DNA of 63,046 nt, the filler included. It is 5 parts of 5 records of this genome, joined end to end, with 100 filler letters (N's around TTAATTAATTAA, not from the genome) between each part and the next. Parts side by side here need not be neighbours in the genome. Positions count along the whole stretch, not along the records: positions 33,172 to 48,530 come from SRR20825010_5084; 4 more parts are not named here. One strand, 5' to 3'. This document shows positions 33,072 to 53,581 of this stretch, piece after piece (position 1 is the stretch's first letter; every line of letters starts with the position of its first letter). The translations under genes and the position numbers were made by a program. The notes under the pieces were generated by a model, which was given only the letters and a program-made list of their open reading frames with translations, had not been told where the DNA came from and made no database searches.

Positions 33072-33171
33072 NNNNNNNNNNNNNNNNNNNNNNNNNNNNN
33101 NNNNNNNNNNNNNNNTTAATTAATTAANNNNNNNNNNNNNNNNNNNNNNNNNNNNNNNNNNNNNNNNNNNN
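33072..33171. other. Artificial contig linker
   Basis: N44-TTAATTAATTAA-N44. Confidence 0.98.
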
Positions 33172-40916: not shown

Positions 40917-41666
40917 TTGGACTATCAAATTATCTTGGTGTTACTGGCAGTCGGTTTAATAGCCGGCTGCTTGAATACCCTAGCTGGCGGAGGTTCTTTG
41001 CTTGCTTTGCCAGTGATGATATTTTTAGGTTTGCCTCCAAGCGTGGCCAACGCCACCAATAGAGTTGCCATAGTTTTACAAAATATATTTGCCGTTCTAG
41101 GCTTTAAAAGCAAAGGAGTTTCGGCCTACCCTTTTAACATATGGCTGGGTATTTCTGCTTTTTTCGGAGCAATTGTAGGTGCCTTCTTAGCGGTCGATAT
41201 CAACGAAAAAGTCTTTAATAAAATCTTAGCTTTCGTTATTGTAGCGATTGTAGTTTATATGGCTATCAATCCATTGAAGTACCTTAAAAAGAAAGGAGAA
41301 AATCAAACTAAGAAAGCTACTATCACCTCAATAATCGTTTTCTTTTTCATCGGTATTTATGGTGGCTTTATTCAAGCTGGTGTTGGCTACCTTATGATTA
41401 TGGCACTCACCTTGGTGAATGGCTTTAGCTTGGTGAAAACCAATAGTATTAAGGTTTTTGTGGCACTTACTTATACTTCGGTGGCTTTAGCCATCTTCAT
41501 TTACTACGACATCATCAACTGGGAATTCGGAATTCCGTTAGCCATTGGGCAAGCTGTTGGCGGCTGGTTTGCAAGCCGTTGGAGTGTAAAGCTAGGTGAT
41601 AAATGGATTCGCTATTTTGTGATGATTACCGCATCAGCTTTTGCCGTTAAGTTATTCTTCTTTTAG
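40917..41666 (+). CDS. TauE/SafE (TSUP) membrane protein
   Basis: AGGGSLL, ANATN, YGGFIQAGVG. Confidence 0.88.
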   Translation: MDYQIILVLLAVGLIAGCLNTLAGGGSLLALPVMIFLGLPPSVANATNRVAIVLQNIFAVLGFKSKGVSAYPFNIWLGISAFFGAIVGAFLAVDINEKVFNKILAFVIVAIVVYMAINPLKYLKKKGENQTKKATITSIIVFFFIGIYGGFIQAGVGYLMIMALTLVNGFSLVKTNSIKVFVALTYTSVALAIFIYYDIINWEFGIPLAIGQAVGGWFASRWSVKLGDKWIRYFVMITASAFAVKLFFF

Positions 41667-42131
41667 CTTTTTGGCGTAGTAAGCTTCTGCTTCTTCCAGT
41701 TTTGAAAGGTCATCTAAATCTTTATATCGCTTCGAGCGAGCTTTCTCATTTTTGAGGTCTTCCAGAGAAATTACCCTCACTTCGGTTTTCTCAATTATCC
41801 GGGTTTCGGCTTTTTCAAATGCTTCTTCAAAGCTTATTTCTTTACTGATATTGATCCTTGTAAGTAATTCCACTATATAGTCTCCATCAGAAAAGCTCAC
41901 AATATTGTTTTGCTTTAGCTCACTTTCCGCTTCTTCCGAAAAATCATAGCCCATTCTGTAGAAAGCATCACCAAGCCTAATTAAGCTGCTTTCATCATTT
42001 GATACCCATAAATCTAAATCTCCTGTCGTGCGATTGTAACCATGAAAGTTCACGGCAAACCCTCCAATGACCATGTAACGGACGCCACTCATGTTAAAAG
42101 CTCGGATTACATTTAGATAAAAATCATCCAT
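41652..42131 (-). CDS. Nucleotidyltransferase-fold protein (DUF6036-like)
   Basis: VIGGFAVNFHGYNRTTGDLDLW (GG + DxD), C-terminal K...R.KDLDD. Confidence 0.8.
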   Translation of the reverse strand: MDDFYLNVIRAFNMSGVRYMVIGGFAVNFHGYNRTTGDLDLWVSNDESSLIRLGDAFYRMGYDFSEEAESELKQNNIVSFSDGDYIVELLTRINISKEISFEEAFEKAETRIIEKTEVRVISLEDLKNEKARSKRYKDLDDLSKLEEAEAYYAKKLKEE

Positions 42132-42309
42132 TTCTTTTCTTCAATTGAAAACCTTTAGATTCCTTTTTGTTAGACTGAAGTTTGTTCATGATTTTGATTT
42201 GGTTCAACAACCAAAGAATGCGCTCTTCTGGAGTTCGGTTTAAAGACTGTTCCAACATAAACCGTTCGGATTCTTCGTGAGATTTAAAAATACGGATTGA
42301 TTTACCCAT
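42124..42309 (-). CDS. Small protein co-transcribed with the nucleotidyltransferase
   Basis: MGKSIRIFKSHEESE...TPEERI; 8-nt overlap with the downstream gene. Confidence 0.7.
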   Translation of the reverse strand: MGKSIRIFKSHEESERFMLEQSLNRTPEERILWLLNQIKIMNKLQSNKKESKGFQLKKRNG

Positions 42310-42364
42310 ACCTAAAGCTATCAAAAATGACTCCGATTTAAAACGCTTGTGCTATTTTAGATTC

Positions 42365-44160: not shown

Positions 44161-46560
44161 TCACTCATCCCTTAACCGTTCCGAAGGGTTTGAAACCGCA
44201 GCCTTGAAGGTTTGGAAACTTATGGTAACAAAAGCAATAGCTCCCGCTATAAATGCGGCTAATAGAAATGGTGAAGCACCCAACGTAGTTCGGTAAGCGT
44301 AACCGGCCAGCCAATCGTTCATAAAATACCATGCCGCAGGGAATGCCAAAACCATGGCCACAATAATAAGAACAACAAACTCTTTGGAAAGAATCCCCAC
44401 AATTTGCTGTACCGAAGCGCCAAGCACCTTTCTGATAGAAATTTCTTTACTACGTTGTGCCACCGTAAATGAAGCCAAACCAAACAGACCTAGGCAAGCC
44501 AGGAAAATAGCCAAGCCCGAGAACAAAGTAAACAATTGGCTCCGTTGGGTTTCTGTAGTATATAAGTTCTTGAAACGATCATCCAAAAAATTATAATTCA
44601 GTGGGGCGTTGGGTGAAAACTTTGCGTAAAGACCTTCCACCTGTTGGATAGAATTCTTAATGTTCGTGCCCTCAATTTTGATAGAAAGGTTACGCATTTG
44701 ATTTGGGCGATTGACCAAAATAATAGGCGAAATTTCGCTTTGCAACGACTCGAAATGAAAGTCTTTCACCACGCCTATTACTTTACCACGCACACCAGCG
44801 TAAATCATGTTTTGTCCAATGGCATCTTCAGCACTTTTCCAGCCGATTACCTCAACAGATTTCTCGTTTAAAACAAACGAAGCTGAATCTGTCGCAAAAT
44901 TCTTAGAGTAATTACGTCCGCTGGCCATTTCCATTTGGTAGGTTGGAATGAAATCAGGGTCAACAGACAAACTTTTAATTACGATAGAAGTCGGTAACAT
45001 TTCACCATTCACTTCGGCTTGCGCCCCTTGCGAATCAAGCAATTGCCCTGAGGGAACTCGACTTGAACCACCTGCCATTTTCACCCCCTGAATAGTCAGA
45101 AGTTCATTTTTAAAGGCTTCATATTGGTCGGCTACCTGCTGACTTACCCCCATAATCATCATCTGTTCACGGTCGTAACCCAGTTTCTTATTCTGAATAA
45201 AATCCAGCTGTTTAAACACCACAATAGTCGATACAATCAGAATCACGGAAATGGTAAACTGAACCACCACCAAGAACCTTCGCAAGGCTCCACTCTTTGC
45301 TCCACTCGTGAGTTTTCCCTTTAACACTTTTAAAGGTTGAAAAGAAGAAAGATAGAAAGCGGGATAACTACCAGAAAGCACACCCACCACAATAGCACTG
45401 ATTAGAATAATGGCCACAAGAGGGAGGTTTGTAAACAGATCGAACTCAAGTTGCAAACCGGTAAATGACCTGAAATAAGGCAGTATCAACGAGGTTGCTC
45501 CAACGGCCAAAACCAAGGCGAAGAACACGAGAACAATGGACTCGACTAAAAATTGGTTGATCAATTTGCCCTTTCCAGCACCGAAAACTTTGCGCATCCC
45601 CACTTCTTTGGCGCGAGTGGCCGAACGGGCCGTAGCCAAATTCATATAATTGATGCAAGCAATGGCCAAAATCAAGAAAGCAATAGAAGCAAAAATATAA
45701 ACATAGGTAATGTCACTGTTTTGCCCTTGTTCGTCATCCAAGCTTGAATGCAAATGAACATCAGTTAGTTTTTGAATGTGTAATGCTGTCCAGGTGGTGG
45801 CCTCTTCATCCACATGCGTATTGAGAAAATCACCCATCCTTCGTTCGATTTCTTCAATTCTACCTTCAGGTTTTAAGGTGAAGAAAGTGGAAAAATTATT
45901 ACTCCCCCAGTTACGCATCATGGCTTCTCGGCCTCCATAAAAGGCATACAAAGGAGTCATTTCTGCTAAAAAATCAATCTGATAGGAAGAGTTCTTCGGT
46001 AATTTTTTAAATACCCCTTTCACAATTAAATCAGCCTGGGAAAGGAAGTTGATGGACTTACCTACTGGTTCTTCATCCCCAAAATATTTGAAAGCCATTT
46101 CATCTGAAATCACTACCGAACCGGGTTGCGATAATGCCTCCACCAAGTCTCCTTCAATCACATCCAAGGTTAGAATTTCAGCTATTTCAGGATCTGCGAA
46201 GTAGAAATTATCCTCCTCATAAAGTCTATTATTGTATTTAACTGGCCCGCCAACGGACATCATTCTGCCAATCTTCTCTATTTCTCCAGAAAAATCTTCC
46301 CTGGCCAAAGGACCAAAAGGAGGCGCCACTCGCGACAAATGAAGGGAAGTGGAACCATCAGGACTTATGAATTCACGGGTAAAACGGTAAATATTATCTG
46401 AGTTAGCATGAAACTTATCATAACTGGTTTCTTCCGAAATGTAGAGCCCAATCAGCATACAGCAGGCGAGCCCGACAGATAAACCCAGAATATTAATGAT
46501 GGAGAAAGCTTTGTGTCGCTTTAAGCTACGCAAAGCAATTTTGAGATAACTTTTGAACAT
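44161..46560 (-). CDS. ABC transporter permease (MacB/FtsX-type duplicated)
   Basis: MFKSYLKIALR, ACINYMNL..RAKEVGMRK, RSKEISIRKVLGAS. Confidence 0.92.
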   Translation of the reverse strand: MFKSYLKIALRSLKRHKAFSIINILGLSVGLACCMLIGLYISEETSYDKFHANSDNIYRFTREFISPDGSTSLHLSRVAPPFGPLAREDFSGEIEKIGRMMSVGGPVKYNNRLYEEDNFYFADPEIAEILTLDVIEGDLVEALSQPGSVVISDEMAFKYFGDEEPVGKSINFLSQADLIVKGVFKKLPKNSSYQIDFLAEMTPLYAFYGGREAMMRNWGSNNFSTFFTLKPEGRIEEIERRMGDFLNTHVDEEATTWTALHIQKLTDVHLHSSLDDEQGQNSDITYVYIFASIAFLILAIACINYMNLATARSATRAKEVGMRKVFGAGKGKLINQFLVESIVLVFFALVLAVGATSLILPYFRSFTGLQLEFDLFTNLPLVAIILISAIVVGVLSGSYPAFYLSSFQPLKVLKGKLTSGAKSGALRRFLVVVQFTISVILIVSTIVVFKQLDFIQNKKLGYDREQMMIMGVSQQVADQYEAFKNELLTIQGVKMAGGSSRVPSGQLLDSQGAQAEVNGEMLPTSIVIKSLSVDPDFIPTYQMEMASGRNYSKNFATDSASFVLNEKSVEVIGWKSAEDAIGQNMIYAGVRGKVIGVVKDFHFESLQSEISPIILVNRPNQMRNLSIKIEGTNIKNSIQQVEGLYAKFSPNAPLNYNFLDDRFKNLYTTETQRSQLFTLFSGLAIFLACLGLFGLASFTVAQRSKEISIRKVLGASVQQIVGILSKEFVVLIIVAMVLAFPAAWYFMNDWLAGYAYRTTLGASPFLLAAFIAGAIAFVTISFQTFKAAVSNPSERLRDE

Positions 46561-46803
46561 GGTGTTGTTGTTTGAGGTTTGAATTCGGTTTTCTAATGCG
46601 TTAAATTGCCTTTTTCAGACCTTAGACAGGTTAACTAGCTAAAGATAAGAATTTTCGAAGAAGGTTGCATGGGATATGATTGGCAAAAGAGATTACTGGA
46701 AATGGATAAATCTAAAAAAATCAAACATATTGGATAAGGAAACTGTACGTCAAAATAGTAGCACATTTTCTCAACAATCCATCAAGCGTAGACCTCATTT
46801 TGT

Positions 46804-47949
46804 ATGATAAAGTTTTTGAAGTCGTTAACACTTGTTTATGTATTGATAGTAGCCATTTTCAGTTGTTCAAGAGAATCAACTGAAAATGGCTACTATTCTT
46901 CTGGGATCTTCCCCACCAAAACCTCTCGTATAGCCATCGAAATTGATGACCAGACCAGAGACTTAAGTTTTAACGTAAGACATCTTGAGATAGACCAGGG
47001 CATAGGGGCAATATTCCACTTTAATGAAATTAATAATACAATTGGAGTCTATGATGTAGAGAAGGGTATGAAGATTAGAACCCTCTATTATGAAATTAAC
47101 GGGCCAAATGGTTTGGGCGAAATAAATGGCTTTGACGTAGTAAGCAAAGACACATTACTACTTTTGGCTGGGTATGAAAACCGTGTTTCAATTGCCATAG
47201 CCACAGATAACTCTGACACACTAAAGTTGATACGCAGCTACAGATTGAGAGCACCAAATGACCCTCTTATAACCACCCCCTATAGCTCTGTGCAAGCACC
47301 CATTGTTATTCGAAATGATTCGATAATCATGGCGGGCGTTCCGTATATCAGGCCAGAGAGGGACAACATGTATGATGCTGGAAATAATGTAATAAAAATC
47401 AGCTTGAAGGATTCCTCTTATGTGTATGAAAACATGTATAGCCAAGCATATAAAGAAAAGTGGACGCAACATTATTCCAGAATATCATACACTTACAACA
47501 AAGAGCAAGGCCTACTTGCATTCAGTAACCCAATCTCCGACTCGATCTACACTTTTGACCACAAAGGTGTTCGAAAAGACTATATGGTTAAATCTGCACT
47601 TTCTGAAAAAGTGCAGCCTTATCGTGGAAGTTTTCAAGATAATCGAAGAATGCGAGACCATTATAATAACCAGCCCAATTATGGCTACATCATGTATGAC
47701 AAGTATAGAGACTACTATTACAGATTTACAGAAAATGTAGCTACAAAGGAACTGATAAAATACGGGTCAACTGGAATAATAAGAAACATTGGAGTTATTG
47801 TTATGAACAAAGATTTTGAAATTATAGGCGAAACTGAATCGCTTACCCTAGGTTCTTTTCCGACCATTTTTATTGGAAAGCGTGGCCTTTATTTTATGCT
47901 AGTATCCAATGAAGAATCAAAAATGTTATACGATCTCTATGAGTTTTAG
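46804..47949 (+). CDS. DUF4221-like beta-propeller lipoprotein
   Basis: IFSC lipobox, GPNGLG, YDKYRDYYYRF, IVMNKDFEIIGE. Confidence 0.75.
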   Translation: MIKFLKSLTLVYVLIVAIFSCSRESTENGYYSSGIFPTKTSRIAIEIDDQTRDLSFNVRHLEIDQGIGAIFHFNEINNTIGVYDVEKGMKIRTLYYEINGPNGLGEINGFDVVSKDTLLLLAGYENRVSIAIATDNSDTLKLIRSYRLRAPNDPLITTPYSSVQAPIVIRNDSIIMAGVPYIRPERDNMYDAGNNVIKISLKDSSYVYENMYSQAYKEKWTQHYSRISYTYNKEQGLLAFSNPISDSIYTFDHKGVRKDYMVKSALSEKVQPYRGSFQDNRRMRDHYNNQPNYGYIMYDKYRDYYYRFTENVATKELIKYGSTGIIRNIGVIVMNKDFEIIGETESLTLGSFPTIFIGKRGLYFMLVSNEESKMLYDLYEF

Positions 47950-48403
47950 AAATAAGCTCACCTTTATATTTCTGACTGTTACACTTTTAGGTTGTAATAC
48001 ATTAACCAAACAGGCGAATGTAACTAGCCTCTTTTCACCTGAGAGTGCTCCAAAAAATGGGTTAGTAATTCCAATTAGTGGGTGCTCAGGCTGCGTTGAG
48101 GCAATGTTGTCTTTTGCCAAAAAAAACAAAAACAACGTTAACCTTTTTTTAATACTACTTGGAGATGACATTAAACAAAGCAATTATATCTTAAGCCGGG
48201 AATTCCAGAGTCATTCAAACTTCATATCTAAGCCTTTAGATAGTGTGGGCCAATTAACTTTGGATTCTCAATTTCCAAAGTATTATGTGGTACAGTCAGG
48301 GAAAATTATTGAAGAATCACAAATCAATGCCAGCAACCTATTATCAGAGAAACTCAAGCTTCAAGAAATGCTTGAAAATTTACTTTTACCCAATGAACCA
48401 TAA
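47939..48403 (+). CDS. Hypothetical lipoprotein with CSGC (thioredoxin-like) motif
   Basis: LLGC lipobox, VIPISGCSGC; overlaps the upstream gene. Confidence 0.65.
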   Translation: MSFRNKLTFIFLTVTLLGCNTLTKQANVTSLFSPESAPKNGLVIPISGCSGCVEAMLSFAKKNKNNVNLFLILLGDDIKQSNYILSREFQSHSNFISKPLDSVGQLTLDSQFPKYYVVQSGKIIEESQINASNLLSEKLKLQEMLENLLLPNEP

Positions 48404-48419
48404 AACCACTAGAATAAAC

Positions 48420-48452
48420 AAAAAAAGCCTCACATTACTGTGAAGCTTTTTT
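48420..48452. terminator. Bidirectional terminator
   Basis: AAAAAAAGCCTCACA-TTAC-TGTGAAGCTTTTTT. Confidence 0.75.
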
Positions 48453-48456
48453 GCTT

Positions 48457-48530
48457 TGGTGGAGAATACCGCCCCGAAGCCTCGGGGCGAACCGATGACC
48501 TTCCCGAAGCAAGTTCGGGACGCTCTAGCC
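48457..48530 (-). pseudogene. Remodelled tRNA-Ala-like sequence with two CCCGA..TCGGG hairpins, 5' truncated
   Basis: Minus strand GGCTAGAGCG-[TCCCGAACTTGCTTCGGGA]-AGGTCATCGGTTCG-[CCCCGAGGCTTCGGGG]-CGGTATTCTCCACCA. Confidence 0.7.
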
Positions 48531-48630
48531 NNNNNNNNNNNNNNNNNNNNNNNNNNNNNNNNNNNNNNNNNNNNTTAATTAATTAANNNNNNNNNNNNNN
48601 NNNNNNNNNNNNNNNNNNNNNNNNNNNNNN
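48531..48630. other. Artificial contig linker
   Basis: N44-TTAATTAATTAA-N44. Confidence 0.98.
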
Positions 48631-53481: not shown

Positions 53482-53581
53482 NNNNNNNNNNNNNNNNNNN
53501 NNNNNNNNNNNNNNNNNNNNNNNNNTTAATTAATTAANNNNNNNNNNNNNNNNNNNNNNNNNNNNNNNNNNNNNNNNNNNN
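53482..53581. other. Artificial contig linker
   Basis: N44-TTAATTAATTAA-N44. Confidence 0.98.

Follow-up and report, generated by a model that had tools for sequence, protein, structure and literature searches.

The element at positions 48457..48530 (minus strand) of the window, the 63,046-nucleotide stretch of DNA analyzed here, is a disabled spare copy of a tRNA-Ala gene in a Roseivirga-like bacterium, two arms of which have been replaced by hairpins at exact positions. It probably forms the right-hand repeat of a small, selfish nuclease-hairpin cassette that lodged at tRNA-Ala(GGC) and was hit twice. In relatives the cassette comprises an intact tRNA, a terminator, a single-domain GIY-YIG gene, a partial duplicate of the tRNA that bears the hairpin and runs from position 8 to the 3′ end, and a second terminator.

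Structure and Context of the Element

The window consists of five contigs (GC contents of 64, 56, 40, 63, and 43%) joined by N spacers at 9577-9676, 33072-33171, 48531-48630, and 53482-53581; as these are separate contigs of differing GC, the neighbors across 48531 are unrelated. The tRNA-Ala copy ends the third contig (33172-48530, 40% GC) and a spacer follows 48530, so that the contig does break at the element, as a sequence-only reading of this DNA had noted. The ABC permease gene of this contig (MacB_PCD/FtsX; 44161..46560, minus strand), assigned by profile and synteny and used as a synteny anchor, has its best relatives in a Cytophagales bin (85%) and in Roseivirga (67-74%), and the contig is Roseivirga-like. 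Further into the contig, at 41652-42324 (minus strand), a gene for a 159-residue nucleotidyltransferase-like protein (DUF2204) and a 66-residue upstream ORF run opposite to the direction of their neighbors. This pair, which is partly missing from the alignment to the related genome G430, resembles a minimal nucleotidyltransferase two-gene module.

Re-reading of the letters confirmed the minus-strand sequence as first quoted. The D-loop 3′ part, the D-stem 3′ strand, and position 26 of a tRNA-Ala(GGC) copy (48521..48530, minus strand, identified from the sequence and from relatives) are followed by hairpin 1 (48502..48520, minus strand; 19 nt with a 7-bp stem and a 5-nt loop), which by comparison with the intact gene substitutes the whole 17-nt anticodon arm (positions 27-43). 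The variable loop, the T-stem 5′ strand, and TTCG are retained from the tRNA, as read from the sequence (48488..48501, minus strand). Hairpin 2 (48472..48487, minus strand; 16 nt with a 6-bp stem and a 4-nt loop) substitutes ACTC (positions 58-61) by the same comparison and is a member of a genome-wide 16-mer repeat class. The remainder of the T-stem 3′ strand, the acceptor 3′ strand, the discriminator, and CCA were likewise read from the sequence (48457..48471, minus strand), with the CCA end at 48457-48459. The terminator reported to follow the copy was found at 48421..48452 (minus strand) as a terminator-like hairpin of 14 pairs, recognized by its fold and duplicated in relatives along with the tRNA 3′ part. 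Positions 27-43 and 58-61 are given in standard tRNA numbering.

The tRNA-Ala scaffold with two hairpins that had been described is therefore real, its parent is tRNA-Ala(GGC), and the whole anticodon arm is replaced; the T-loop, however, is not replaced as a whole, since TTCG is kept. The shared GCTTCGGG of the two hairpins comes from a common repeat family and not from the copying of one hairpin into the other. The idea that the loop CTTGC is a remnant of an Ala(TGC) anticodon was discarded: this 19-mer also lies scattered outside tRNAs, and none of the four Ala(TGC) loci in the nearest genomes has a copy. In the proposed check with tRNA callers, ARAGORN called no tRNA in the window (the copy is also cut by the contig end) and the Rfam tRNA model (RF00005) was absent among 29 Rfam matches at E<=10. 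An Rfam match of the element to BTnc231 was discarded, as it reached 27.4 bits against a gathering threshold of 80.4 and was driven by the terminator. The bare motif CCCGA..TCGGG occurs twice in the window, both times as one of the hairpins (chance expectation 0.73 ± 0.86; 19 of 100 shuffles as high). This count is not above chance, and the case stands on placement and recurrence.

Orthologous Loci in Relatives

Synteny with the window was found in five relatives, with identities of 86-94% over ~13 kb in G430 and G361, 82-88% in G541 and G544, and 84% in L183. All five have the same order: an NlpC/P60 gene, an intact tRNA-Ala(GGC), a terminator-like hairpin, the double-hairpin copy, and a second terminator. 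What lies between the intact tRNA and the copy varies, as the GIY-YIG gene is intact in one (G430), broken in one (L183), and absent in three. In G430 the 293 bases between the tRNA copies contain only the terminator and a GIY-YIG ORF of 82 residues whose stop codon falls inside the D-loop of the copy, and a TAG at 48525-48527 in the D-loop part of the window's element occupies the orthologous place. The gene in L183 has acquired a stop codon and a 22-nt deletion, and in G361, G541, and G544 just 55-56 bases, with no nuclease gene, separate the copies. The small nuclease whose presence nearby had been suggested thus adjoins the copy in relatives. G430 and L183 both have a direct repeat of the tRNA 3′ part around the cargo; the cassette in relatives measures ~350 bases, and the window's element corresponds to its far (right-hand) end. 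In filled alleles the intact tRNA and the terminator persist, so a disrupted target is not evident.

Beside the element lie a convergent ORF of 164 residues with no Pfam family (47909..48403, plus strand) and a DUF4221 gene (46804..47949, plus strand), both of which are at the site in G430 and G361 and absent from G541, G544, and L183. In G474, a genome of the same species as L183 and 95-99% identical to it on both sides, a gene for a 1260-residue protein stands in place of the cassette. This gene and the patchy occurrence of the other two mark the stretch behind tRNA-Ala(GGC) as a hotspot for insertions. In most pairs the 100-base stretch upstream of the tRNA diverges by 3-8%, vs. 13-38% further out, which could reflect co-conversion or promoter constraint. 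In another locus (L001:9665-9739) the tRNA-Ala(GGC) is inverted with respect to the NlpC/P60 and ABC permease genes, relative to L183 and G541.

The GIY-YIG Nuclease and Its Linkage to tRNA Copies

The G430 protein has PF01541 as its sole domain (E 5.4e-15), with catalytic residues read from its sequence as Y5, Y16, and E62, and its best solved relatives are 1ywl (E 8.5e-07) and 1zg2 (E 0.0055). In the genus, where the Ala(GGC) locus is present in 31 of 36 genomes, a hairpin copy occurred at 10 of 10 loci with a downstream GIY-YIG gene vs. 5 of 21 without one, counts that include kin and hence not independent loci. Across five genomes, 13 of 15 GIY-YIG matches adjoin a tRNA or a tRNA copy. The nucleases also cluster by host tRNA (12 changes vs. 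36.6 when shuffled, on a tree of 59 rows, one per locus, and 94 columns, in which many forks are open), implying that the site is kept for long times. Between G430 and L183 the nuclease gene has no differences at 16 fourfold sites, vs. 25 of 62 in the adjacent NlpC/P60 gene (p=0.002); this signal, from one species pair and 16 sites, points to lateral movement, and the nuclease cassette appears to move between species.

A second layout was observed in L319:1226-1530, L320, and L279:1639-2017, in which the GIY-YIG gene lies upstream of an intact tRNA and after a 5′ stump with a D-loop palindrome. The ORF in L319 and L320 ends inside the 5′ end of the tRNA, and the proteins of this layout group apart from those of the downstream type.

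Arm Replacement Across tRNA Genes

Swaps were counted where a hairpin anchors on an intact tRNA of the same locus; the rows include kin and tandem copies, and three were reassigned by hand from the anticodon arm to the T-arm. Exactly 17 nt were replaced in 44 of 66 anticodon swaps and 13 nt in 18 (all Asp), with four being other or mis-anchored. The T-arm swaps (n=34), which recur in copies of 12 tRNA genes, replace four bases in 21 cases, three in six, and 5-11 in seven, and four of five D-arm swaps replace four bases. The loci were found largely by patterns that contain tRNA boxes, and so the search favors precise junctions. The recurrence of one palindrome family at fixed positions bears out the view that random decay does not account for the element.

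The anticodon pattern was found in 32 of 151 genomes of the family and the T-loop pattern in 17 of 36 of the genus, both with zero matches to a reversed-pattern control, so that a unique motif, named earlier as a possible refutation, is ruled out. A stricter T-loop pattern matched 16 of 301 family genomes (control 2) and the double-hairpin pattern 11 of 401 genomes of the phylum (control 0), the latter representing six clear double copies, one degenerate copy, and four that are not double copies. A loose T-arm pattern, which also catches native tRNAs, matched 21 of 401 genomes of the order, with its control matching in seven; 12 of its 30 loci were examined. In viral contigs, none of 56 T-loop pattern matches was tRNA-like by inspection.

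In G361 partial copies adjoin nine of the 35 intact tRNA genes, and eight of these nine loci have hairpins, seven of them in the T-arm; none of the 35 intact genes itself contains a hairpin. A GIY-YIG gene is found at only one of the eight hairpin loci, and the nuclease must therefore act in trans or be often lost. Tandem arrays of 2-9 units occur. A Val(TAC) cassette copy in G541 shares the GGCT loop and has a compensated stem, and the Val(TAC) cassette is a possible donor class for the T-loop hairpin. The copy of Ala(GGC) in G564 has a D-loop insertion and not an anticodon-arm swap.

Several other arrangements were observed among these loci. In L635 (G361:C4:70700-72300), at least four units of ~130 bases lie behind a tRNA-Glu; each closes with the last bases of the tRNA and a terminator, and each has a different AT-rich hairpin. 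L098 holds an array of tRNA-Asp copies, in three of which the anticodon is changed to GCC so that they are called tRNA-Gly. A second palindrome family (CCTGCC..GGCAGG type) inserts into the D-stems and T-arms of the same tRNA duplicates, as seen in upstream copies at L078, L297, L301, and L321 and in the T-arm at L102 and L274.

The Hairpin as a Dispersed Repeat

G361 contains 86 hairpin-pattern matches vs. 32 for the control, mostly away from tRNAs. Among 50 of the 86 that were listed there are 36 16-mers; both free outer positions are paired in 30 of the 36, which fall, by hand count, into four stem types, indicating that pairing, not sequence, is kept. The exact 19-mer of hairpin 1 occurs at at least 121 metagenome loci, and 9 of 119 among the matches listed with full flanks are in a tRNA-like context. 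The earlier proposal of a palindromic element that targets tRNA loops holds insofar as one short-palindrome family sits at fixed tRNA positions, but the palindrome is not tRNA-specific. The flanks of the 19-mer pair above chance (mean -5.48 vs. -4.62 ± 0.15 kcal/mol for 89 of the 119 rows, after removal of near-duplicates), an excess that is modest. The hairpins are also present in 23S rRNA and in terminators, and as dispersed, mostly intergenic short palindromes with conserved pairing they share a feature of REP-type sequences.

These observations speak for an explanation in which the tRNA copies are passive targets: the partial duplicates would be products of ordinary tandem duplication or scars of integration, a REP-like palindrome would land in stem-loop tips genome-wide and survive only in dispensable copies, and the nuclease would be a passenger or a remote source. 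The seven of eight G361 hairpin loci that lack a nuclease gene fit such an account, as does the existence of tRNA-Glu duplicates without hairpins. It is opposed by the link between GIY-YIG genes and hairpin copies at Ala(GGC), by the nuclease ORF that ends within the tRNA copy, by the signal of lateral movement in the nuclease gene, and by the small size of the flank-pairing excess, and we judge it unlikely, at about one chance in a handful.

The hairpins were also seen in other repeats. In G541 (L342, L345, L351, L352, and L359) a dispersed repeat of ~35 bases, in which the 16-mer hairpin caps a TCCT..AGGA stem, lies downstream of genes. In L131, L165, L205, L218, L224, and L227 the 19-mer lies between the halves of SRM-like repeats, so that two hairpin families meet in one array. 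In L295 (near 1953), L298, and L138 members of the hairpin family lie inside what we take to be 23S rRNA sequence, seemingly at variable helix tips.

Alternative Explanations

A functional RNA would be a further explanation: read-through would yield a tRNA-like fragment that serves as a decoy for tRNA-cutting enzymes, as a processing or stability signal, or as a partner of the nuclease. In keeping with this, the two hairpins are near-invariant (0-1 differences per 35 nt) among six lineages, including three without a nuclease gene, compensatory changes maintain their stems, and the window's copy has kept its CCA end. The fourfold divergence among the same six lineages is 19-58%, although some of these rates may include a paralogous permease and one clear orthologue gives 13-47%. 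Lateral spread would account for the near-invariance only if recent; selection on the copy would fit equally. The downstream copies, however, begin near position 8, with 80 of 126 mismatches at positions 1-7 in 18 orthologous copies, and an acceptor stem formed in none of the five that were folded, so that the cloverleaf is absent; lacking the 5′ acceptor strand, the copy cannot be a tRNA or be charged. The parts derived from the tRNA carry uncompensated changes (54 of 360 D-arm mismatches in the 18 copies, a 2-nt insertion raising the count in two rows), in the minimum-energy RNA fold the two hairpins can pair with each other, and there is no copy in G474 or at 16 of the 31 genus loci. The accessible text of PMC11893778 adds that SsnA, a nuclease to which we return below, does not bind RNA. 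We consider a functional RNA improbable, and the tRNA-like decoy or guide RNA of the sequence-only reading is not upheld, in view of the lost acceptor strand and the position of the copies behind a terminator-like hairpin.

Mobilization of the hairpin, as a REP, by a Y1 transposase (IS200/RAYT type) encoded at another place in the genome is highly improbable. Y1 transposases were found in all five genomes searched, and at two Y1 loci of G361 a hairpin lies 400-800 bases away. Against this, hairpins occur at 10 of 12 GIY-YIG loci vs. 2 of 20 Y1 loci; we counted 17 in 33 kb around the former and two in 64 kb around 20 of 24 Y1 matches, a density close to the genome background. The hairpin is thus a dispersed repeat tied to GIY-YIG genes and not to Y1 transposases.

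Misassembly, suggested by the abutment of the element on the contig end and by a normal T-arm behind the same hairpin 1 in the public run X2, and named beforehand as a refutation, is effectively dismissed, since the double-hairpin copy sits inside contigs of five other lineages and run X1 (possibly the source sample) contains 46485-48530 with 0 differences. The X1 sequence extends 78 nt further. The X2 sequence is a 404-base contig with 345 nt upstream and a depth of 7.8 vs. 3.6-5.9, and the identity of other X2 contigs to the window is >=99%. Both the normal T-arm in X2 and the contig break would follow from a tandem unit upstream. By length arguments only, the X1 extension fits the nuclease-less layout and the X2 upstream stretch fits a nuclease-bearing unit.

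Comparison with Known Systems

The Ssn nucleases act on single-stranded DNA and are associated with NTS/SRM hairpins; SsnA binds its hairpin in ssDNA form only, cleaving a few bases upstream, and the Ssn catalytic residues are Y6, Y17, and E64, according to the accessible text (Chenal et al., 2025, PMC11893778). The cassette resembles this system in having a single-domain GIY-YIG protein of <100 residues next to short hairpin repeats with further copies across the genome, and in the like spacing of Tyr, Tyr, and Glu (Y5, Y16, and E62). It differs in being lodged in tRNA duplicates; the main text of PMC11893778 has 0 occurrences of "tRNA" or "Bacteroid". The SRM motif was not found in the element, among the 123 19-mer matches listed, or within 500 bases of the surveyed GIY-YIG genes. 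For the criterion of the Ssn clade (blastp E<1e-10 to SsnA), six SRM-flanked proteins were used as stand-ins in place of SsnA. The best match of the G430 protein to these was 32% over 66 residues (E 0.003), and the stand-ins form their own clade (100/100, branch 2.45) apart from the cassette nucleases. Some tRNA-Asp and tRNA-Val relatives reach E 1e-10 to 1e-12 to the stand-ins, from which the two groups are kin. The cassette is built like Ssn/SRM (cd10448), with membership not supported by the SRM search or by the clade test run with stand-ins.

SegB is a free-standing GIY-YIG homing endonuclease of T-even phages for which, in the accessible text, a tRNA segment is amplified by recombination after cleavage (Chihara et al., 2026, PMC13096335). 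Both systems have a GIY-YIG gene adjoining tRNA genes, with a sign of lateral spread here, and both have tandem copies of a segment containing a tRNA, whose amplification is nuclease-driven for SegB and would be so here. The cassette, in contrast, is in a bacterial chromosome, encodes only 82 residues, and matches the long intron/homing endonuclease model TIGR01453 below threshold (19.4 bits against a cut-off of 56.05, over 29 of 215 model positions), so that neither size nor score places it with SegB-type enzymes; its resident tRNA and terminator stay intact, and its copies are hairpin-swapped, a trait of which the accessible text of PMC13096335 makes no mention. The structures 1ywl and 1zg2 are placed among the bacterial Slx1-like proteins (UPF0213) in the accessible text of PMC1564403, which, unlike what is seen for the cassette, gives no tRNA-gene or hairpin link for UPF0213. 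The likeness is that such stand-alone Slx1-like proteins are the best solved relatives of the G430 protein.

Integrative elements leave att-site duplicates of tRNA 3′ ends. The cassette shares with them the direct repeat of a tRNA 3′ part and terminator around cargo, and differs in that the 350-base unit has no integrase and its repeat itself carries the arm-replacing hairpins. REP/RAYT and IS200/IS605 systems combine dispersed short palindromes with a Y1 transposase. The cassette hairpins are likewise dispersed short palindromes, but the link to a Y1 transposase is absent and the cassette is not a RAYT system. Both of these hairpin systems are discussed in the accessible text of PMC11893778. 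In the open-access literature we found no description of a cassette with a hairpin-swapped tRNA copy.

Proposed Mechanism

By analogy with SsnA, the nuclease would bind the hairpin on single-stranded DNA and nick nearby; to our knowledge, SsnA is not known to move its own hairpins. By analogy with SegB, recombination stimulated by the nick could then use the tRNA 3′ part and terminator common to both copies to insert, amplify, and move the unit, in a manner that would always leave one intact tRNA. Short-patch conversion may transfer hairpins from one tRNA duplicate to another, using boxes common to most tRNAs (GAGCR..RGGTC flanking the anticodon arm and GGTTCG..C in the T-arm), which would produce identical junctions in different tRNAs. 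The anticodon hairpin probably came first and the T-loop hairpin as a later second hit, as anticodon-only copies are found across the family, the T-arm hairpins of Ala vary in sequence and junction between lineages, and X2 combines hairpin 1 with a normal T-arm. The hairpins would survive in spare copies only, and they may stabilize the cassette, as the single Ala(GGC) gene would be lost to any crossover on the 5′ side of a hairpin.

An alternative that we regard as possible, if doubtful, is that the 82-residue nuclease is Slx1-like, reads the cloverleaf-like fold of a tRNA gene in single-stranded DNA, and cuts at helix junctions, whereupon a hairpin of 16-20 bases replaces an arm irrespective of the tRNA sequence; the 350-base unit would then be self-mobile via its tRNA 3′ halves and self-locking by its own hairpins. 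Were swapping structure-guided in this manner, the arm units would be the 17 nt of the anticodon arm and 4 nt of the T-arm or D-loop, and the 350-base unit of nuclease and copy would be among the smallest self-mobile elements.

Significance

The proposed selfish nuclease-hairpin cassette accounts for a frequent type of pseudo-tRNA and contig break in Bacteroidota, and it assigns a defined candidate substrate to a clade of very small GIY-YIG nucleases. If the nuclease is a new hairpin-specific ssDNA nuclease, it would widen the Ssn toolset. The case bears on how short palindromic repeats spread, and its junctions are exact to the base. The sequence that preceded the swap is next door as an intact tRNA. 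Two genomes of one species are also available, one with the cassette and the other lacking it, which makes both insertion and cutting directly testable.
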